Positions 10,660 to 37,355 of a DNA stretch of 37,355 nt are shown here, piece by piece. How positions within the stretch are numbered: the first letter of the stretch is position 1; each line of letters starts with the position of its first letter. The notes beneath the pieces were generated by a model. That model saw nothing but the letters and a program-made list of their open reading frames with translations. It made no database searches and was not told the origin of the DNA. This DNA comes from Chiloscyllium plagiosum (lineage: Eukaryota): NCBI RefSeq assembly GCF_004010195.1, contig NC_057718.1:42754902-42792256 (forward strand). Direction: 5' to 3'. The translations under genes and the position numbers were made by a program.

Positions 10660-10990
10660 TGCAACAAGGGGCAAACTATCCACTGGTTGGTGTCATATCT
10701 GACACAAAGGAAGATGGATGTAGTTGTTGAAAGTCGGTCATCTCATCCAGGACATCTCTACAGGAGCTCCTCAAGGTAATATCCTAGGCCCAATCATCTT
10801 CAGCTGTTTCATCAATGATCTTCCCTCCGTCATAAAGTCAGAAGTCGGGACAATCGCTGATGATTGTACAATGTTTAACATCATTTGCAAGTCCTCACGT
10901 ACTGAAGCAGTCCATTTCCAAATGCAGCAAACCTGCACAATATCCGAGTGTGAGCTGAGAGGTGGCAAGTCGCATTCATGTCAAACAAGT
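10660..10990 (+). mobile_element. CR1-group LINE family A RT core fragment (resumes at ~11929-11975)
   Basis: GAPQGNILGPIIFSCFINDLP...IADDCT (RT motifs, ORF 10724-11035). Confidence 0.85.
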
Positions 10991-11051
10991 GACATTTTTA
11001 CAAGTAAGAATATAGTTATCACTAAATATATGTGAATATACAAATATAGTT

Positions 11052-11978: not shown

Positions 11979-12135
11979 CAAAACAAAGAAGAACTTCAGG
12001 TGCTGGAAATTTTAAGTAAATGCAGAAATTATTGGAGAAACTCAGCAGATCTGGCAGCATCTGTGGAGAGAAGGCAAATTAACCTGAAGTAAGTTCACTG
12101 GATGTGAAATGTTAACTCTGCTTTCTCTCCATAAA
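11979..12135. mobile_element. Degenerate Penelope inverted-pLTR remnant
   Basis: gaaactcagcagatctggcagcatctgtggagagaa ... ttctctccata inverted arms. Related to 25207-25373, with a decayed hammerhead-like core ctgaagt...gaaatgtt. Confidence 0.65.
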
Positions 12136-16430: not shown

Positions 16431-17215
16431 GTGAGGACAGTTAGAGGCAATGAGGAATTTACAAGAGCAAGGGGATGTGATGGATGGCAGTTAAAGGAAA
16501 GGGGAAAAGTCTCAGATACAGTCACATAGATGGGTTAACTTCAGGAAAGGTAAGAGAGGTAGGTAGGTAGTGTAGGCGTTTTCTGTGGCTATCCCCATTT
16601 CAAAAAACTATGCTGTTTTGGAAAATATAGGGAGTGATGGATTCTCAGGGGAGTGTAGCACAAACAGCCAAGTTTCTGGTATCAAGACTGGCTCTAATGC
16701 CAGGTTCCAAGAGATCGATTGTGTTAGGGGACTCTGTAGTCCGAGGTACAGACAGATGTTTCTGTGGCCAGCAGCGAAAAAGCAGAATGGTGTGTTGCTT
16801 CCCTGGTGCCAGGATCAAGGATGTCTCAGAGAGGGTGCAGAATGTTCTCACGGGGGAGAGGGGCCAGCAAGAGGTCATTGTACACATTGGAACCAGCGAC
16901 ATAAGAAGGGAAAAGATTGAGATTCTGAAGGGACAATGTAGAGAGTTAGGCAGGAATTTAAAAAGGAGGTCCTCGAGATTAATAATGCCTGGATTACTCT
17001 CGGTGCTATGAGCTAGTGAGGGCAGGATTAGGAGGATAAAGCAGATGAATGCATGGCTGAGGAGCTGGTCTATGGAAGAAAGATCCACACTTTTGAATCA
17101 TTAAAATCTCTTCTGGAGTAGAAGTGACCTGTACAAGAAGGATGGTTTGTTAGAAGGGGACTAATATATTGGCGTGGAGATTTGCTACAGCTGATCAGGA
17201 GGATTTAAACTAGTG
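16431..17215 (+). pseudogene. CR1 ORF1 remnant with SGNH/GDSL esterase domain
   Basis: GDS motif and HIGT.D block in ORF 16634-17011. Disrupted by stop codons. Confidence 0.8.
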
Positions 17216-17339
17216 AGGTGGAGTGGAGGGGGACCCAGGGAGATAGTGAGGAAAGTGATCAATCTGAGATTGGTACAGTTGAGAAAAGAAGCGAGTCAAA
17301 CAGTCAGGGCAGGCAGGAACAAAGCAGAGAACAAGGTAG

Positions 17340-20080
17340 GACTGATAAATTAAACTGCATTTATTTCAATGCAAGAGGGCGAACAGGGAAGACAGATGAA
17401 TTCAGGGCATGGTTAGGAACATGAGACTGGGATATCATAGCAATTACAGAAACATGGCTCAAGGATGGACAGGACTTGCAGCTTAATGTTCCAGTATACA
17501 AATGCTACAGGATGGATAGAAAGGGTGGCAAGAGAGGAGGGGGAGTGACTTTTTTGATAAGGGATAGCATTACAGCTGTGCTGAGGGAGGATATTCCCAG
17601 AAATACATCCAGGGAAGTTATTTGGATGGAGCTGAGAAATAAGAAAGGGATGATCACCTTATTGGGATTGTATTATCGACCCCCTAATAGTCAATGGGAA
17701 ATTGAGAAAAAAATTTGTAGAGAGATCTCAGTTATCTGGAGGATAATAGGGTAGTTATGATAGGGGATTTTAACTTTCCAAACATAGACTGGGACTGCCG
17801 TAGTGTTAAGGGTTTAGATGGAGACGAATTTGTTAAGTGTGTGCAAGAGAATTTTCTGATTCAGTATGTGGACGTACCTACTAGAGAAGGTGCAAAACTT
17901 GACCTACTCTTGCGAAATAAGGCAGGGCAGGTGACTGAGATGTCAGTAGGGGAGGACTTTGGGGCCAGCGACCATAATTCTATTAGTTTAAAATAGTGAT
18001 GGAAAAGGATAGACCAGATCTAAAAGTTGAAGTTATAAATTGGAGGAAGGCTAATTTTGATGGTATTAGGCAAGAACCTTCAAAAGCTGATTGGGGGCAG
18101 ATGTTCACAGTAAAGGAACGGCTACAAAATGGGAAGTCTTCAGAAACGAGATAATGAGAGTCCAGAGAAAGTGTATTCTTAGGATGAAAGGAAAGGCTGG
18201 TAGGTATAGGGAATGCTGGATGACTAAAGAAATTGAGTGTTTGGTTAAGAAAAAGAAGGAAGTGTATGTCAGGTATAGACAGGATAGATTGGGTGAATCC
18301 TTAGAAGAGTATAAAGGCAGTAGGAGTATACTTAAGCGGGAAATCAGGAGGGCAAAAAGGGGACATGAGATCGCTTTGGCAAATAGAATTAAGGAGAATC
18401 CAAAGGGTTTTTACAAGTACATTAGGGACAAAAAGGTAACGGGAGAGAATAGGGCCCCGCAAAGATCAGCAAGACGGCCTTTGTGTGGAACCACAGGAGA
18501 TGAGGGAGATACTAAACAACTATTTTGCATCAATATTTACTGTGGAGAAGGACATGGAAGATATAGAATGCAGGGAAATAGATGGTGACATCTTTAAAAA
18601 TGTCCATATTGCAGATGTTGTGAAACATATAAAGCTGGATAAATCCCCAACACCTGATCAGGTGTACCCTAGAACTCTTGGGAAGTTAGGGCAGTGATTG
18701 CTGGGCCCTTGCTGAGATATTTGTATCATCGATCATCACAGGTGAGGTGCTGGAAGACTGTGGGTTGGATAATGTGGTGCCACTATTTAAGAAAGGTGGT
18801 AAGGACAAGCCAGGGAACCATAGAGCAGTGAGCCTGATGTCGGTGGTGAGCAAGTTGTTGGAGGAAAGCCTGAGGGACAGGATGTACATGTACTTGGAAA
18901 GGCAAGGATTGATTAGGGATAGTCAACATGGCTTTGTGCATGGGAAATCATGTCTCAAAAACTTGACGGAGTTTTTTGAAGAAGTAACTAAGAGGATTGA
19001 TGACAGCAGAGTTAGACGTGATCTATATGGACTTCAGTAAGGTGTTCGACAAGGTTCCCCATAGGAGATTGGTTAGCTAAGTTAGATCTCATGGAATACA
19101 GGGAGAATTAGCCATTTGGATACAGAACTAGCTCAAAGGTAGAAGACTGAGGATGGTGCTGGAGGGTTATTTTTCAGACTGGAAGCCTGCGACCAGTGGA
19201 GTGCCACAAGGATCGGTGCTGGGTCGACTATTTTTCATAATTTATATGAATGATTTGGATGTGAGCATAAGAGGTATGGTGGGTAAGTTTGCAGATGACA
19301 CCAAAATTGGAGGTGTAGTGAACAGTGAAGAGAGTTACCTCAGATTACAAATGGATCTTGATCAGATGGGCCAATGGGCTAAGGAGAGGCAGATGGTGTT
19401 TAATTTAGATAAATGCGAGGTGCTGCATTTTGGGAAAGCAAATCTTAGCAGGACATATACACTTAATGGTAAGGTCCTGAGTAATGTCGCTGAACAAAGA
19501 GACCTTGGAGTGCAGGTTCATGCTCCTTGAAAGTGGAGTCGCAGGTAAATAGGATAGTGAAGAAGGCGTTTGATATGCTTTCCTTTGTTGGTCAGAGTAT
19601 TAAGTATATGGGTTGGGAGGTTATGTTGCGGTTGTACAGGACACTGGAATATTGTGTGCAATTCTGGTTTCCTTCCTATCAGAAAGATGCTATGAAACTT
19701 GAAAGAGTTCAGAAAAGATTTACAAGCATGTTGCCAGGGTTGGAGGATTTGAGATATAGGGAGAGGTTGAATAGGCTGGGGCTGTTTTCCCTGGAGCATC
19801 GGAGGTTGAGGGGTGACATTATAAAGGTTTATAAAATCATGAGGGGCATGGATAGGATAAATAGACAAAGTCTTTTCCCTGGGTTGGGGGAGTCCAGAAC
19901 TAGAGGGCATAGATTTAGGGTGAGAGGGGAAAGATATAAAAGAGACTATGGGGCAACTTTTTCACATGGAGGGTGGTAAGGGTATGGAATGAACTGCCAG
20001 AGGAAGTGGTGGAGGCTGGTACAATTGCAGCATTTAAGAGGCATTTGGATGGGTATATGAATAGGAAGGGTTTGGAGGGA
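17340..20080 (+). pseudogene. CR1 ORF2 remnant (endonuclease + reverse transcriptase)
   Basis: Consecutive + strand ORF fragments (17476, 17757, 18091, 18485, 18747, 19153, 19527) carry the EN and RT motifs in order. Confidence 0.9.
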
Positions 20081-20668
20081 TATGGGCTGGGTGCTGGCAG
20101 GTGGGACTAGGTTGGGTTGGGATATCTGGTCGGCATGGACGGATTGGATCGAAGGGTCTGTTTCCATGCTGTACATCTCTCTGACTTTATGGCTATTCCA
20201 CTAAGAGTTTAATACATGGCTGCCTGCTTGCTGCATTTACAGTTGTGTTTGAAACATAAGCTGCTGGCACATGGTGGAAATATGTGTTTGATATAGTACA
20301 TTGCTGTACAACAAGATGTCCACCCCTACACTGAGGACAGCTTAACAGCAAGACCAGCTGCCCGGTTGTCTGACTGCTAATTGGCACGGCAAGGCAAGAC
20401 AGGGCATGGATGATGCTGGCATGCAAGTAGAGATTAATTAGAGAGTAGAGCAAGAGAGCAAGCAAGCAAGCAGTCCTAAGGTGCAGCTTGGTCCAGTTCA
20501 TGAGTTGCTGGGTACCTGTGCCTGCTGTAGCCTTTCAATGCTAACTACCTATGCAATGCAAGTCTGTGCTTCCAGAGTAGAAAGTGAGGTCTGCAGATGC
20601 TGGAGATCAGAGCTGGAAATGTGTTGCTGGAAAAGTGCAGCAGGTCAGGCAGCATCCAGGGAACAGGA

Positions 20669-20704
20669 GAATCGACGTTTCGGGCATAAGCCCTTCTTCA
20701 GGAA
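20669..20704 (-). ncRNA. Minimal hammerhead ribozyme motif (mirror copy)
   Basis: Exact reverse complement of the motif at 20709-20744. Confidence 0.7.
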
Positions 20705-20708
20705 GGGC

Positions 20709-20744
20709 TTCCTGAAGAAGGGCTTATGCCCGAAACGTCGATTC
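20709..20744 (+). ncRNA. Minimal hammerhead ribozyme motif (PLE type)
   Basis: CTGAAGA(20712-18)-A-GGGC-TTAT-GCCC-GAAA-CG-TC. Core intact, stem III is the palindrome ACGT, predicted cleavage after 20739. Stem I is very short. Confidence 0.7.
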
Positions 20745-20949
20745 TCCTGTTCCCTGGATGCTGCCTGACCTGCTGCGCTTTTCCAGCAACACATTTCCAG
20801 CTCTATGCTTCCAGAGTACACTGGCAATGCATCCAAGAGGTGCCAGAATGATTGTGAGGGGATGACGAATGTCTGTGGATGAAGATTGCATATGCTTGGT
20901 GCCTGTGCATTGCGCCCTGGGCTGCAGCATAGTCATAGGCAATATGAAG

Positions 20950-21162
20950 CAAGATTAGAGTGATGCTGGAAAACCACAGCAGGTCAGGCAGCATCCGAGG
21001 AGCAGGAAAATCAATGTTTCAGGCAAACGTCCTTCCTGATGAAGGGCTTTTGCCTGAAATGTCGATTTTTCTGCTCCTCGGATGCTGCCTAACCTGCTGT
21101 GCTTTTCCAACACCCCTCTAATCTTGACTCTGATCTCCACCATTTGCAGTCCTCACTTTTGC
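20950..21162. mobile_element. Older Penelope inverted-pLTR insertion (related subfamily) with hammerhead motif
   Basis: Arms caagattagag...(20950-) and ...ctctaatcttg (-21126), then a tail actctgatctccaccatttgcagtcctcacttt. Flanking repeat gcaatatga at 20939-47 and 21168-76. Motif CTGATGA-A-GGGC-TTTT-GCCT-GAAA-TG-TC at 21036-21063. Confidence 0.85.
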
Positions 21163-23029
21163 TGTAAGCAATATGAGGGTCTTCAGGGCGAGCAGCAAGC
21201 TGAATCTGCCAGATACATGCTCCGGTTTCCATGTTGATTTTCCTGATGTCTACCTTATTTGGCAAGTTTGCTAAGATGGGAGAGTGAATATTAATGAGGT
21301 GAGTTGTACTGTGTAGCAAGTAGTAATCACTCACTGCTGCTGCCCAACAAGAATCTCACCAGGCCACATGTGGAAAGCTAGAAGATCATGCAAGTTACTC
21401 CTGCAATTGATGTGGGCCGAAGCAAAATTCCTGCCCAATTTTGTCACACATCTAAGCACTGCTTACTTTGCACAGACCTCTACAAGATCCTGCCTCAATT
21501 GTTTTAGTTCATTTTAGGAAGCTAGTATTTTGTAGTAATATTTTATTTTCATGATTTCATGGAAAAATATCCTGAATTATGAAAATAAATGTGACATGGA
21601 TATGTTGTTATAAAATTTCTATATATATAGAAGTACACAAGTATAATTAGCCCTAGCAGGGAAAAACAATTGTGGTGAAAGGGTGATAGATGAATACTGG
21701 TGATTGAATTCTAAAATATCATCTTAGTGTTATTGGAATTTGGATGGGCCCAGTGAGAGATCTGACTGAGGCTACAGAATGTAGTCAGTCACAGGAGATG
21801 AAGGTGTAAAATCAGGACAATCTCCTATTTGGCTGCACTCTAAAATCTGCCAAAGTTCGCAGGGTAACATGAAGAATCCTATGTGATTGACTGTCTATTA
21901 GTCTCAGTGAAGGAAGACAATACGGATGTGAGAAGACAGTAATGGATAACAGTATATTGCAACTCCTTTATTACAGGGATAGGATTAGATCAGAGGAAGC
22001 GGAATTATTTTTATAAATACAACTAGATATTTACTAACAAGCTTGATAATCATTCAGACTAGAATGTGAACTGAATGCCATTGACTCAATAATATTAGGT
22101 TACTTGTGAAAGCATCCCTAAATTCAGCATCTATGTGATCCCAGTAGAAATGTATGGGGGTAGAATGCAAACTAAACAATTAATTAAAGGTCAGGTATCT
22201 CTTATGTATATAATCCTATTCAAAACCTTAAAAATGCTTTACATGGGACCCTTCCTTTAATGGACAAGTAGCAGTGAAAAGTATAAGGGTCAGCTGCCTG
22301 CTGTGTTATATAGCTGTTGTGTTCCCTGCCAGATATATTCCAGAAAATTTGCTGCATTTATAATTTGTTTCCAAAACAAATAATGAACTTTATGACAGGA
22401 CCAGCAAATGGTGCTAAAGATAGTTACAGTATGATCACTCTGGACAACTGTTCAGGACTATGAGAACATTAAGGGTATGTGTTTGAACTCCAGTGAAGGA
22501 ACTCATCATGATATAAATTATCTATGAACTACCATAAAGAGGGGGGTGTTCCTTCATAAATAATCATATTCCACAGAGCTACACTGTTGCCAAAATATGG
22601 CAAGTATGCATCTGAACAAACTGATACTCAACCAGGTTAGGCCTGAACATAACAGGGAAAATGTTGTGATTCCTTTGGCAGTTCATGCACTTTATAAATT
22701 CACTATATATATATCATTAACTCTTGCAGAGCCACTGATGAATTGCTACATTGATTAACTTTCAATTTTGCTCTCAATTTGAAGGTTGTATTCAATTTAA
22801 TTCATGGATAGCCTATGTTCACTACACTCTCATAATTACCTATCAAATTTATTTCAAAACATTTCATGGACTAATACCTCAACTCCTAGCTTTCAAACTT
22901 AAGAAGGAGGCTCACCAAATGATATGTAACAAAGGGAAAATGTATTTAGTTCATTTCTGACAAGTTTACTCATTAGGTACTCATCAGCTCCACATTCCAA
23001 TCAGTTACCACTTTCACTTTCAGTCAATA

Positions 23030-24300: not shown

Positions 24301-24617
24301 TTAGAATAGATTCCTTACAGTGTGGAAACAGGGCCTTTGGCCCAACAAGTCCATACTCACCGCCCAAAGAGTAACCCACCCAAACTCATTTACCCCTGAC
24401 TAATGCACCTAACACCATGGGCAATTTAGGATGGTCAATTCACCTGGCCTGCACATCTTTGGATTGTGGGAGGAAACTGGAGCACCCGGAAGAAACCCAC
24501 ACAGACACAGGGAGAACGTGCAACCTCCACACAGACAGGCACCTGAGGCTGGAATCGAATCCAGGTCCCTAGCATTGTGAGGCAGCAGTGCTAACCACTG
24601 AGCCACCATGCCACCCA
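24301..24617 (-). mobile_element. HE1-type SINE
   Basis: Minus strand gggtggcatggtggctcagtggttagcactgctgcctcaca...gattcgattcc (boxes A and B). Tail gcctgtttccacactgtaaggaatcta. Confidence 0.9.
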
Positions 24618-25206
24618 TAGTGTTGAATATGTTCTTGATTTGGATAATGATTGTTGAGATTTTGGTCTCCTTGTACCACACTCATTTGTGGACATGTTGT
24701 ATTCTTTGTTGGTTCAAGTTGCTTTTGAATCTTTGTGTTGTAAAGATTGTTGCTGATTGTTAACTAGTACTAAAACTGAAAGCCATAAAGTTTTTGCTCC
24801 TCTAGTATTGTTTTTGATGTGAAGTTCAGTACTCCTTTACCAATGTGGCATAACCCAAGAGATAAATGAAGATATTCAGTTCCAAAGTGGGTGAAGGACT
24901 GCCAAAAGGTATGTGGATAGAAACTTCAAATTACTTCAATTTATAAGATTCATAGATTTTTTTGATTGTATGAAAGATGTCTGCCGTGATATTCACACCA
25001 ATGTTTTTCTCGGTTTGAAATAGTTTTGTACGAAATTTGATACACATTATCAGATTTATGCTCATTTTCTTTGATTGCTGTGCCATTTTTTAATAAGTAA
25101 AATTAATTTAAAAAGTTAGTTACTCAACAAAACTTGCATTTCTCAGACAAAACATCAAAACAATAAAGATTTGTCTAAATAAAAACCAAAATAAACTATT
25201 GATGCT

Positions 25207-25373
25207 TAAATCAGAAATAAAAACTGAAATTTCTGGAAAAGCTCAGCAGGTCTGACAACGTCTGTGGAGAGAAATCCTGAGGAAGGGTCACCCGACCCGA
25301 AACATTAACTTTAAGTTCTCTCCACAGATGCTGCCAAACCTGTTGAGCTTTTCCAGCAATTTCTGTTTTTGTT
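25207..25373. mobile_element. Penelope inverted-pLTR insertion (third family) with hammerhead motif
   Basis: Arms ctggaaaagctcagcagg...tctgtggagagaa and ttctctccacaga...gagcttttccag. Motif CTGAGGA-A-GGGTC-ACCC-GACCC-GAAA-CATT at 25277-25306. Confidence 0.85.
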
Positions 25374-25619: not shown

Positions 25620-27140
25620 GTGTTGGAAGGGAACTTACCAGTGGTGTTGTTTCAATGTATTTGGTGCCCCTGTCCTTCAAGGTGAAAGTGATCATAGGTT
25701 TGGACATTACTGCCTAAGGAGCCTTAATGAATTTCAGTTGCACATCTTGTAAATGGTATATGCTGTTGTTGCTGTGTGACAATGTTGGAAAGAGTTATTG
25801 TTTGTAGACGTGGGGTCAATCAAGCAGAATACTTTGTCAAACCTCTCTAGTATTGAATGAGCTGCACTTATTTAGGCAGTGGGGAGTATTCCATCAGACT
25901 CCTGACTTGTACTATGTAGATGGTGGACAACCTTCGGAGAGTCAGGAGGGGAGTACTTGCTGCAGTATTCCTAGCTTCTGACTTGCTCTTATAACCATTG
26001 TGTTTATGTGGTGAGTCAAGTTGAATTTCTGGTCACTGATAACGCTAAGGATGTTGATGGTGGGAGATTCAGTGATGATAAGGCTATGGAATGTCAAGGG
26101 GTGGTGTTTAGATTATCCCTTATTTGAGACAGTAATTGTCTGTCATTTGTCTGACATGGATGTTACTTGCTAATTGTCAACTCAAGCCTGATATTGTCCA
26201 GACCTTTTCGCAGTTGAACATGGGCCGTTCCAGTACCTAAGGAGTCATCAGCAGTGCTGAACATTGTATAATAATCAGCAAACATCCTGCTTCTGACCTC
26301 ATGATGAAGCAGCTGAAGATAGTTAGGCATAGGACACAACCCTGAGGAACTCCTGAAGAAATATCCTCAAGATGAAATGACTGACCACCAACAACAACAG
26401 CCATCTTCCTATGTGCCAGGTATGACTCCAAAGCGCAGAGAGTGTACCCCAAAATTATCATTGATTCCAGTTTTGCCCAGGCTCTTTGATGCCACACTCA
26501 GTCAAATGCGGCCTTGATGTCAAGGGTTGTCACTCTGGAATTCAGCTCTTTTGTCCATGTTTGAACCAAGCTGCAATGAGATCAGGAACCAAGTGGCTCT
26601 GGCAGAACCCAAACTGGGCATCACTCAGAAGGACATTGTTAAGCAAATGTGGCTTGACAGCACTGTTAATGACACCTTGCATCACTTTACTGATGATAGA
26701 GAGTAGGCTGAGAGGGCGGTAATTGTGGGTTGGATTTGTCCTGCTTTTTGTGTATAGGGCATACCTGGGCAACTTTCCACTTGGTAAAAGCGAGTTTTGT
26801 AGCTGTACCGGAAGAGCTTGGATCAGCATGGAAGGTTCGGGAGCACAAAAGCATTCCAGCAATAGTCCTAAAGATTTAAGGCCCATAGCTTTTGCAATAA
26901 CCAATGCCACAATTTCTTAATATCAGGTGGAATGAATTGAATGGACCGAAGACTGGCACATATGATTTTGGGGCCTTCTTTAGGAGGCCAAAAGATATTC
27001 ATCTGGTACTTCTGGCTAAAGGTTGTTGTGAATTCGTCAGCCTTATCTTTTGTACTGATGTGTTGGGATTCCCGTCATTGAGGATGGGGATATTTGTGGA
27101 GCCTCTGCCTCCAGTGAATTGTTTTGTTTGGGTGACCACA
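25620..27140 (-). mobile_element. CR1-group LINE family A, RT region and 3' part
   Basis: Minus-strand ORFs NYRPLSLLSIISKVMQG...DAQFGF and GVPQGCVLCLTIFSCFI. The 3' portion mirrors 8002-8720. Confidence 0.88.
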
Positions 27141-30360: not shown

Positions 30361-30972
30361 AAGAAATAGTTCAGGCACAAAGTGCAATTGCTTTTGCATC
30401 TCAAATACTGACTTGTCTGGATTGTGTTTTGATTTGTATCTGGGACCTAAAGTGGCAGCCTCTTAGCAGTTGAGAATCTCAACATGCAGACCAACATGTG
30501 GAAAATGATGAAGTAAACCCAAAAAAAATCAATTACCCCTCTTCAGCTGATAACAAATCTTTATGGTTGTGGAGTAATGGAAGATTTGGACATCTATTCA
30601 GCTCGGGTCTGGTGTAGATGTTAACCTCTGAATGATATTCATGTGTGAGATATTAAGAGCACAAAAAATGAAGCAGAAGCCAAAACCAGTAAAGTTGTAA
30701 AGGGTTTGGCCTATTTGAGAGACACTTACACCCAATTTACATTTCCACATTTTTGTTGAAGAGCTTATGCAATAATATTGTTGTGAAAATGACCTTCATC
30801 TTTTAAAGTTATACTCCCTAACATTATTATCATGCCGGGATGTTCATTCACCCCTCATCATATCAGTAGATTATCAATATACACAAAACTAGTACAATTC
30901 ATCTCATCAACAAACTCTGTAGGTAACAAGTTATGCCATTACGTTGATTGTCATCCAGACTCTCTTGTTTCT

Positions 30973-31410
30973 TGAAAAGCTCAGCAGATGTGGCAGCATC
31001 TTCTGAGGATGGGTCACCTGTCCCAAAACATTAGGGCAGCACGGTGGCTCAGTGGTTAGCACTGCTGCCTCACAGCACCAAGGTCCCAGGTTCAATTCCA
31101 GCCTCGGGTGGCTGTTTGCACATTCTTCCCGTGTCTGCGTGGGTGTGCTCCGGTTTCCTCCCACAATCCAAAGATGTACAGGTCAGGTGAATTGACCATG
31201 CTAAATTGCCCGCTCGTGTAGTGTTAGGAGGGAAATGGTTCTGGGTGGGTTACTCTTCAGAGGGTTGGTCTGGACTGGTTGGGCTGAAGGGCCTGTTTCC
31301 ACACTGTAAGGAATCTAATCTAAACTCTGATTTCTCTTCACAGATGCTGCCAGACCTGCTGAGCTTTCCCAGCAACTTCGTTTATGAGTTACAGCATCTG
31401 CAGTTCTTTC
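30973..31410. mobile_element. Penelope inverted-pLTR insertion split by an HE1 SINE
   Basis: gaaaagctcagcagatgtggcagcatc ... gatgctgccagacctgctgagcttt arms. Decayed hammerhead ctgagga-tgggtcacctgtccc-aaaa-catt at 31003-31032. Confidence 0.8.
31034..31323 (+). mobile_element. HE1-type SINE
   Basis: Box A TGGCTCAGTGG (31045-55), box B GGTTCAATTCC (31089-99), CR1-derived tail gaagggcctgtttccacactgt and a (aatct)n end. Confidence 0.92.
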
Positions 31411-34069
31411 AGTTCTCTTATTTCGTGAATTGGATTCTATGAATTTAAGATTTATGCTAGTACAGTAGATCCTAAGTTAGTATCAAAAGAGAGGCCATGA
31501 GTGACCATACAAGATGCAGATCTAAATCTGCCATTTAACAGGTTGCGTTTTGAATCCTAAACAATGGAACTCAATCTGCTAATCAGAAAGGATGGTAAAC
31601 CCATTGTATGAAGCAAACCAAAATTCAATTAAATTCAATCCAGATATATTTTCAGTGTTTGGAGCACTGAGGAGAAAAGATATACAAGTACTCCAACAGG
31701 CTGAAAATGATGGATCACCAGCAGTATTAAGTTAACTCTGCCGTGAAAAGCTGATGATGTCACGCCACTTGCTACTATTAACAAAAATATATTAAGAAAC
31801 AATAAATGCCAGTAAAAGAGTGCATTTGAATGTTGTGATTTCACAAAACCAAGCTTTTAACATTCATTAGTCACAAAAGAAGGTCTTTATTTATGATTAA
31901 CTATGTTGCAGTATAATAAACCAATTGAAATTAATGTTTCATTAATATTATTATGTAACCTTTTTAAATAGAATACAGCAAACTTGACAGAAGTGACACT
32001 CACCTTCCTCTGACAGTAATTCTGCCTCCAAAGACAGGCAACAAATCCTCTGGGGAGTAGGATTTTGGTGCATCACGTTCACATATTCCCCATTGTTTGC
32101 ACTAGAGGAGTTGTTTCAAATGGCGAGCTCACCATCAAAGGCAGCCCTGGATGGTAAATGGATGTAAAACATACAGAAGAAGATTTCCATTTAATTTCAG
32201 CCAGCAGCACGCAGTATGTCATCATGACTTGGTGACAAAAGGCTACTAATGATCTCTCCCCACTGTAATCAAAGGCTGCTCTCACTTAAGTAGAAAATGT
32301 TGTTTATACTGATGAACGGTGAAATATTAAGAGTTAGTTAATGCAAAGAACTAGTTACAGGAAGTGTGTTTGATACATATTCAGCTAAATTTTGGAGCTG
32401 GGAGATCCCGTGCATTTTTTTCCCTATCCTGATTATGCCGCTATGATGGGACAGAATTGGGCTGGTTTGTTATGGTGAAGGCATTATAGGTGAAAATGCA
32501 ACTGGTAAATTATTCACATTCATCAAAAAATACTATACTGTAATTCAGAAGGATTAAATTCACTAGATGATGCAGGAGATAAAGCAAACATCCGTGTGCA
32601 TTATGTACGAATTATCTTATGATCATTAGATTAATACAATGTTTATGATACTAAAGAGTTTCAGTCTCTGCAGGTTTAAAGTATCAGAGCTTGTAAGGTG
32701 GCTCAACATAGAAAATTTGGCTTCCAGCATTCTAGTCTGACTGTATACCCTGTATGTCCCAGTATTCTTTTGTTTAAACATAATTATGTACACAATAAAA
32801 GAGAGAGGAATTACAAGGTCTTGTCTTGATAGCATCACGTGACACAGCCAAATGCTTCAATTTCATTAATCTTCCACCTCACTCTAATACAAATTCATGG
32901 AGAAAGAAACTGAATCTGAGCCACACAATATAACACAGGCATTGCTTTGCTTCCAGGCAAGTGGACAGAAGATTTAAAAATTCCCATGAAGGGTGATTAT
33001 TGCTTTTTAATGATGTTCTGACCTATAAGGCTTAAGCCCAGGAGTATTGCTGTCGTACATGTACTTGGTTAAAAGCTGGATTTGGGAGCATGCAGGAAAC
33101 AGCATGCAACTTAAGGCACTTTCTTTGAGCTGGAACTCTCTAGTTTCCTGCGCTGCTTTGTTAACCACTGCGCTAGCAGAAGAAGCACATTTTTTTTCCA
33201 CTGTGTGAGTGATTGTCTGCACAGCAGTGACAGATGTGCAATATAGCAGCTTCTTCAGGAAAAATTAACAGTTTGTCCAGCATGTCATCTCCTTCTTTTT
33301 AGTGCTTCGAGGTCTTGGCCCCATTACGGATGATTTAGAAATTCAGGCAAGCAAAGTACCAGCTGCTTGTGTTCAAAGCTTTAGATGCAAGACCTCATCT
33401 GCATTCTTCTATTCACTTACACATATAAATTGTTAAGGCCCCTCTGGCCTGGAGATGAGTAGAGGATGACAGTGGCTTGATTTGCTGAGAGGATGTATAA
33501 ATGGGTTTTTGGGAAGATGAGGAAATATCACCATTACTGACCAATTTACAGCTTTTTATCTGTTCCTCAAACATGTCACTTTTGTTATTGTGGCTTGGTA
33601 ATTACATAGCAGGCAGGGAAAAATAAATTTTGGTTTATATTCAGATGGACTGCAAAATCCTCTAATCCTGACAAATACCCATTTAAAAATACTAGTGCCT
33701 GAAAGATTAATTTTCATTTTGAATAGCAGAGCAGCTGTAAATAGAAGAATTGTTACTCGGGAATGTGATTGTCTTAAAACATTAACCTCTTGGTTTCTTT
33801 TCTCTTAGGGCTTTGTGCTGCTAGAAATCTTAGCCGTTGCCTTGAGTCTCTCTTACCGAGAGTCCACAGCAGATATGAGAATTAAAGAAACTGAAATTAC
33901 TCCACTTAAATGCAAGTGAATTAATGAGGGATTTTGATGAATACAATTGACATTAGTTAGACAAGAATTCAGAACAAAAGGACTTAGTACTATTACAATA
34001 TGAAAACTAAGACTGCCTGAATTTAGCAGCATCCTGTTAAATAAATGGATTCAGGACAGATCTAGCAGT

Positions 34070-37196: not shown

Positions 37197-37355
37197 GCTG
37201 AAAATGTGTTGCTGGAAAAGCGCAGCAGGTCAGGCAGCATCCAGGGAACAGGAGAATCGACGTTTCGGGCATAAGCCCTTCTTCAGGAATGAGGAAAGTT
37301 TGTCCAGCAGGCTAAGATAAAAGGTAGGGAGGAGGGACTTGGGGGAGGGGAGTCG
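37197..37355 (-). mobile_element. Young Penelope-like element pLTR running off the window end, with hammerhead motif at 37259-37286 (-)
   Basis: 37197-37289 is nearly identical to 20612-20704, then continues into the element body (gaggaaagtttgtccagcagg...). Confidence 0.85.

Follow-up and report, generated by a model that had tools for sequence, protein, structure and literature searches.

Anatomy of the insertion

We analysed a 37,355-nt stretch of Chiloscyllium plagiosum DNA, here called the window. At 20567..20818 lies a 226-base insertion, which consists of two mirror-image arms and a one-sided tail inside a 13-nt TSD (Table 1). The insertion is real. Its palindrome is 196 nt long in total, with a GG loop at 20706-20707 and a single mismatch between the arms, at 20636. 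Re-measurement upheld all the dimensions given in a preliminary description of the locus (97-nt arms, GG loop, one mismatch, 29-nt tail, and 13-nt TSD).

The 13-mer of the TSD occurs exactly twice in the window (20567 and 20806), and the match cannot be extended. The tail is 29 nt long, or 30 nt if the base shared with the TSD is counted. It is element sequence, since an older copy ends in the same sequence at 21128-21159. The arm mismatch at 20636 is a CpG-to-TpG change that places a G-U pair on the + RNA; CG is retained in the mirror arm and in the copy at 37197. In repeat comparisons, family homology stops at 20704 and resumes at 20709. Family sequence begins, in both arms, 3 nt upstream of the hammerhead core. 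The four bases in between form part of a local inverted repeat with 9-nt halves (20688-20696 / 20702-20710), for which a DNA hairpin of -9.4 kcal/mol is predicted. The inserted copy contains no ORF.

Table 1. Features of the insertion and of two related copies, in window positions.
Feature	Position	Strand	Basis or details
Left TSD, 13 nt	20567..20579		Single copy at the empty site of organism B
One-sided tail, 29 nt (3' end of element)	20580..20608	-	Repeat comparison; loose contig ends at 20579
Left arm, 97 nt: element end, antisense on +; CpG-to-TpG change at 20636	20609..20705	-	
Central non-family bases, four, including GG loop	20705..20708		Likely snap-back copy templated on 20688-20696
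Right arm, 97 nt: element end in sense, without tail	20708..20804	+	Loose ends at 20796
Extra A outside both arm and target	20805..20805		Not in the empty site of organism B
Right TSD, 13 nt	20806..20818		Sequence match; empty site of organism B
Minimal type-I hammerhead core, predicted cut after 20674	20674..20701	-	Motif descriptor; cut site predicted
Minimal type-I hammerhead core, predicted cut after 20739	20712..20739	+	Motif descriptor; cut site predicted
Older palindrome, same family	20939..21176		9-nt TSD (20939, 21168), tail on right, 11 mismatches in 86-nt arms
Longer young copy, same family, 98-99% alike over 93 nt	37197..37355	-	Repeat comparison

Empty site and age

Of the 24 listed runs, 4 were compared with positions 20200-21700. 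Three of these have contigs: X2 and X5 come from organism A, and X12 comes from the related organism B. The fourth, a raw RNA run sampled at about 6%, gave 0 reads, which at that coverage does not speak against expression. The preliminary description had suggested looking for an empty site, and organism B has one, with a single 13-mer: an X12 contig joins 20202-20566 directly to 20806-20979 (365 + 174 letters), with nothing between. In X2, contigs of organism A enter the insert from both flanks, with their ends pointing outward. One runs to 20603 (0 other letters) and another starts at 20780, so that they reach 24 and 26 letters inside; both are shorter than the 31 letters required for a bridging contig, and X2 may itself be the sample from which the assembly was made. 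None of the listed pieces of X5, which belongs to a separate study, crosses either junction.

The centre junction is absent among the 24 organism A contig pieces listed (there were 260,737 others), as would be expected if the palindrome were an assembly artefact, either a fold-back read or a collapsed longer palindrome. The available text of PMC8557442 likewise reports that inverted PLE structures trouble assemblies. Such an artefact is nevertheless exceedingly improbable here, given a TSD with a matching empty site and outer junctions that are both present in read-derived contigs. The one-sided tail, the CpG mismatch between the arms, and the non-family central bases argue against it as well.

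Over 1114 aligned letters, organisms A and B show 31 substitutions, a divergence of 2.8%. Even for an insertion dating to the A/B split, one change or fewer in the 194 arm sites has a probability of P = 0.25, and arm identity therefore cannot date the copy. The insertion had been called very recent. That it is young stands, since it is absent in organism B and its subfamily is enriched in organism A, while the finer claim cannot be read from arm identity. Insertion took place after the A/B split, with no finer date, or the insertion may still have been polymorphic in the common ancestor of A and B.

The letters of the window at 20616, 20659, and 20754 account for 33-48% of the summed family depth in both organism A runs vs 1.3-1.6% in organism B, a roughly 25- to 30-fold enrichment; summed depth is not copy number, and the other 3 of the 6 sites in the subfamily table lack this contrast. 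The contrast at the three sites is therefore taken to mean that the subfamily grew in lineage A, and suggests a burst there. A variant at 20613 stands at ~19% in organism A and 0.2% in organism B.

A minimal hammerhead in each arm

We confirm that each arm carries one hammerhead core, on opposite strands, as previously described; the cores start at 20712 (+) and 20701 (-). The + core has a 4-bp stem II, a palindromic ACGT stem III, and a 2-bp stem I. In all three young copies, stem I consists of two standard pairs followed by U-U. A minimal-hammerhead descriptor finds four sites in the window (20712+, 20701-, 21036+, and 37286-), compared with a mean of 0.005 and a maximum of 1 in 200 dinucleotide shuffles of the window. 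Across seven window motifs, 82% of cells are paired vs 11-52% in slid controls (one row is misaligned). Covariation among the same seven motifs, again with one row misaligned, was not above that of shuffles (148-500 of 500 equally high).

The motif resembles the minimal hammerhead of PLEs as defined in the available sections of PMC4209133, with which a review, PMC6765202, agrees. Shared traits include a CUGANGA core, an unpaired base before stem II, a G-C first pair, GAAA, a palindromic 15.2-16.2 helix without loop 3, and an NUH site. This match supports the earlier assignment to the dimer-type minimal hammerhead, for which PMC4209133, in the same sections, reports no cleavage as a monomer and low cleavage as a dimer. 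Helix I is there given as 4-5 bp, or 2 bp in a D. virilis variant, and the 2-bp stem I of the present motif is shorter than the usual helix, as in the variant. Stem II is 4 bp here vs 7-8 bp in the Schistosoma family. Opposite-strand motif pairs, 100-700 bp apart, are also described for Schistosoma in these sections. In the present insertion the two motif copies diverge on opposite strands, so that one transcript carries one sense motif and its antisense.

A search with Rfam hammerhead models, proposed as a check in the preliminary description, gave no hammerhead match at E ≤ 1. On our reading, a motif without loop 3 lies outside those models. The three matches that Rfam did return are all to miRNA-precursor models and lie far under the gathering scores. 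We rejected miRNA precursor identity, as these matches reflect hairpin shape only.

Probable affiliation with Penelope-like elements

The arms are most likely the hammerhead-bearing pLTR end of a Penelope-like retrotransposon. An inverted, 5'-truncated terminal repeat stands beside a direct copy, a tail is present at one end, and a TSD is accompanied by an empty site. The parts of PMC3846280 that are available report insertions in which the pLTR is inverted, the tail measures 31 bp, the TSDs measure 8-10 bp, and the junctions form head-to-head palindromes, and the same inverted-pLTR layout is repeated in available text from PMC8557442 and from a curation guide, PMC8969392. The match to PMC3846280 and PMC8557442 thus supports the inverted-pLTR-plus-tail layout proposed earlier.

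There is extensive likeness to endonuclease-bearing PLE units, as far as these are described in the accessible text of PMC3846280, PMC8557442, and PMC11167929. It comprises a head-to-head 3' repeat, a one-sided tail of ~30 nt (30-40 nt in PLE insertions according to PMC11167929 and PMC8557442), a TSD, strong 5' truncation, a palindromic junction, and a hammerhead in the repeat. Unlike those units, the present insertion is reduced to ~125 + 96 nt without an ORF, and both of its arms hold a full core. The TSD is 13 nt vs the 8-10 nt of the rotifer examples in PMC3846280.

Membership rests on layout and motif because no parent RT/GIY-YIG ORF was found joined to the repeat. Pfam searches of the 150 longest of the 359 stop-to-stop frames in the window gave no match to a GIY-YIG family, and the RT matches among these frames look LINE-type. 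Two peptide searches from the repeat for a PLE ORF gave 0 matches, which, with such short queries, is weak evidence. Palindromic PLE derivatives include the Chompy repeats of crocodilians. Literature searches for Penelope palindromes in a UCON/Repbase context found no match, and those for shark genomes and small RNA found nothing specific.

Family copies and abundance

The rarity implied by the preliminary description did not hold. The window holds five further palindromes of this sort, and the 1.5-kb stretch 20200-21700, which contains two of the six, is matched by 117,195 contig records in X2 (76,443 in X5 and 103,187 in X12). The six palindromes were picked from the repeat lists of the window and seem to come from three sequence families, with cores at 12084, 15384, 20712, 21036, 25277, and 31003.

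The neighboring palindrome at 20939-21176 is a separate insertion, common to organism B. It predates the A/B split, because the empty-site contig of organism B runs into it, and its centre (palindrome at 20950) is an exact single fold-back with a 5-nt loop. Longer family copies also exist, as seen from loose ends at 20704/20709 and from the copy at 37197-37355, which extends upstream of the hammerhead via a pyrimidine-rich stretch to the end of the window. A 33-nt piece at 33250-33282, on the minus strand, resembles the family sequence just upstream of the hammerhead. Loose contig ends pile up at 20579, with 352, 249, and 358 in the three runs with contigs, and at 20796, with 161 contigs in X2 and 155 in X12.

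All six window palindromes differ in their centres, which would follow if each insertion event generated its own mirror half. In each of the six, one arm begins at the 5' edge of the hammerhead (0-3 nt from the core, on its upstream side) and not at its cut site, and the start of the other arm varies. At the TSD-bounded copy 25173-25372, the tailed arm begins 39 nt past the core and the tail-less arm holds the whole core. The palindromes with cores at 12084 and 15384 resemble this pattern but are decayed, one in its right arm; the tail of the other was judged by eye. The palindrome at 30967-31410 is split just after the hammerhead by a ~290-nt repeat at ~31034-31321, likely a SINE, which has relatives at 786-1074 and 24301-24618.

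Formation of the inverted arms

A sequence of steps can be proposed by analogy with published PLE biochemistry. The available sections of PMC11167929 describe an anole protein that nicks and extends both target strands, with RT starting at two RNA sites whose spacing equals the tail. The protein is predicted to be a dimer and assists hammerhead cleavage, which is not needed for insertion in vitro. By analogy, the staggered target cut made by the element endonuclease would span 13 nt. From each nick a cDNA would be copied off element RNA, starting at the tail end (20580) in one case and ~29 nt further in (20804) in the other, and both cDNAs would stop 3 nt upstream of the hammerhead CTGA. The 3' end of one cDNA would then snap back on itself, adding the four central bases, after which the two ends would anneal over 2-3 bases and be filled in. 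Loose ends at both 20579 and 20796 indeed point to two fixed 3' ends, like the two RT starts in the accessible text of PMC11167929.

This proposal has a counterpart in LINE elements. In L1 twin priming, which Ostertag and Kazazian are said to have set out in 2001, one cDNA is primed at each of two nicks, and microhomology joins the pair. As in L1, an inversion inside a TSD would here arise from two primed cDNAs. The two L1 cDNAs copy different parts of one RNA, whereas both arms of the present insertion copy the same stretch, so that two RNA molecules or two passes would be needed.

We consider twin priming somewhat better than an even bet for this insertion, and formation from a single cDNA possible but distinctly less probable. 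In the latter, one cDNA would have stopped at the 5' edge of the hammerhead, folded back (twice in the present copy), and self-primed the second arm, and trimming would have left the tail. The central inverted repeat and its predicted DNA hairpin fit such folding, the copy at 20950 is an exact single fold-back, and joints of this kind recur (20696 to 21033 in 8, 2, and 6 contigs). In the accessible, mostly non-subscription literature on Penelope twin priming or fold-back, only PMC3846280 (Arkhipova et al. 2013) addresses the question; its available text reads the junction palindromes as products of self-priming. For the copy at 20567..20818 alone, double fold-back of one cDNA yields the same centre. 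Self-priming fails, however, at 25173-25372, where each arm holds sequence missing from the other, and it would leave the fixed end of the short arm near 20796-20804 to be explained in some other way. Two separately primed cDNAs are thus favoured because arms start at the hammerhead 5' edge in 6/6 palindromes and because neither arm of 25173-25372 can copy the other, although a later deletion of the centre could mimic the pattern at 25173.

Alternatively, Penelope proteins might copy the palindrome whole, so that it would itself be mobile as a MITE-like or retrozyme-like non-autonomous unit. Among the 15 of 1357 joints listed, some that cross a centre have depths of 100-300 vs ~10 for the flanks, a 10- to 30-fold excess. 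Depths are 204 and 295 for the joint from 20599 to 20711, and 178 and 197 for that from 20695 to 20773; an X12 contig spanning a centre has a depth of 127 vs ~10 for the flanks. The joint from 20697 to 20738 can also be aligned so as to fall at 20740, the predicted cut site. These high-depth joints may reflect the same join made repeatedly, duplication of segments, or movement of entire palindromes, and they count against one-off joining unless the same junction recurs.

Non-autonomous PLE derivatives are known, as described in the available parts of PMC8557442 and of bioRxiv 10.64898/2026.07.22.740005. The non-LTR retrozymes of the latter resemble the present insertion in that they are short, non-coding, linked to PLE pLTRs, and equipped with a type-I hammerhead. 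They are head-to-tail tandem repeats, whereas the present insertion is an inverted pair with a TSD and a tail, and no retrozyme-type tandem repeat was found within the window. The centres of the six window palindromes all differ, which would not be expected of a unit copied whole, and a 97-bp hairpin RNA would presumably be a poor template. Equal depths could also come from segmental duplication or from joins made repeatedly at one fixed edge. We regard movement of the whole palindrome as quite unlikely.

Beyond the general choice of twin priming, we tentatively propose a Penelope-specific form of it, at somewhat less than even odds. It would combine a dimeric protein, two nicks with two start sites, a fixed stop at the hammerhead 5' edge, and head-to-head joining with snap-back filler. 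If true, Penelope twin priming would account in a single step for the inversion of the pLTR, the presence of a tail at one end, and the palindromic junction, and would tie the 5' edge of the ribozyme to the RNA 5' end or to an RT stop.

Folding and likely fate

The palindrome is predicted to fold into an extremely stable hairpin, with z-scores of -25 as RNA and -27.7 as DNA, and energies of -203.7 (+ RNA), -200.2 (- RNA), and -131.9 kcal/mol (DNA). The predicted pairing probability of stem II is ~5e-15 in the full transcript of either strand, vs 0.91-1.0 in a lone arm, and this supports the earlier suggestion that the ribozyme would be sequestered in a read-through transcript. Because each strand carries only one of the two motifs, the pair cannot make a dimer within a single transcript. 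For two stems II with a trans stem III, a rough model gives -18.9 kcal/mol, vs the -203.7 kcal/mol of the full hairpin. Read-through RNA would therefore, on this modelling, form a hairpin of 96-97 bp that would keep both ribozymes from assembling, and it is highly probable from these predicted folds that the ribozymes are inactive in place.

The same stability raises the possibility of a regulatory hairpin, whose read-through dsRNA would be diced or A-to-I edited, or which would form a DNA cruciform. Penelope copies do yield small RNAs in a rotifer, according to the available text of PMC3846280. We consider regulation very unlikely, as the insertion is lineage-specific and one among very many similar copies, and no host gene was identified within the window. 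A passive role as substrate would not, in any case, amount to function. The insertion probably does nothing, and its fate would be that of an inert stub without an ORF, bearing a CpG decay mark. That it is a dead stub of Penelope-like origin is very highly probable. Our overall reading, to which we assign a probability of about 0.8, is that of a TSD-flanked insertion, absent in organism B, composed of two head-to-head pLTR ends, likely twin-primed and likely inert.

Significance of the locus and its class

The insertion adds no new RNA device; it is an ordinary and likely inert by-product of a repeat family that is very abundant. It is a new copy of an already described Penelope-like insertion type, young and, for this genome, commonplace. 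Taken alone, the locus has little importance: it joins a great number of other dead copies, and its use would not go beyond that of a presence/absence marker for two related species. Collectively, the young palindromes bear on how Penelope-like elements form inverted ends and on what the hammerhead does. The available text of PMC3846280 does not settle the template question. For twin priming, the young copies of this genome, thousands in number, would offer a ready test set.

Genomic context and wider searches

A DNA pattern scan of viral contigs gave 0 matches. Metagenome contigs gave 48 loci; these match over 19-26 nt, resemble the family nowhere else, and were rejected as due to chance. A bacterial promoter scan found nothing; its bacterial model is not applicable to this organism.

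An exon scan of the window returned 0 candidates under strict settings and 9 under relaxed settings, and short exons could be missed. Four candidate peptides for a host gene had no Pfam match, and one had no Atlas match. A 36-codon open frame at 33809-33916 follows a pyrimidine tract and AG and has a hydrophobic start; it has no match in Pfam or Atlas and could be a last exon.

Within the 150 longest of the 359 frames, Pfam matches consist of LINE-type RT/endonuclease pieces and two weak matches below cut-offs. A broken, long LINE-like element occupies ~16576-20190 on the + strand, with RVT_1 and exonuclease-endonuclease-phosphatase matches and a strong G skew. Further RT fragments lie at 10724-11035 and 26542-26916.
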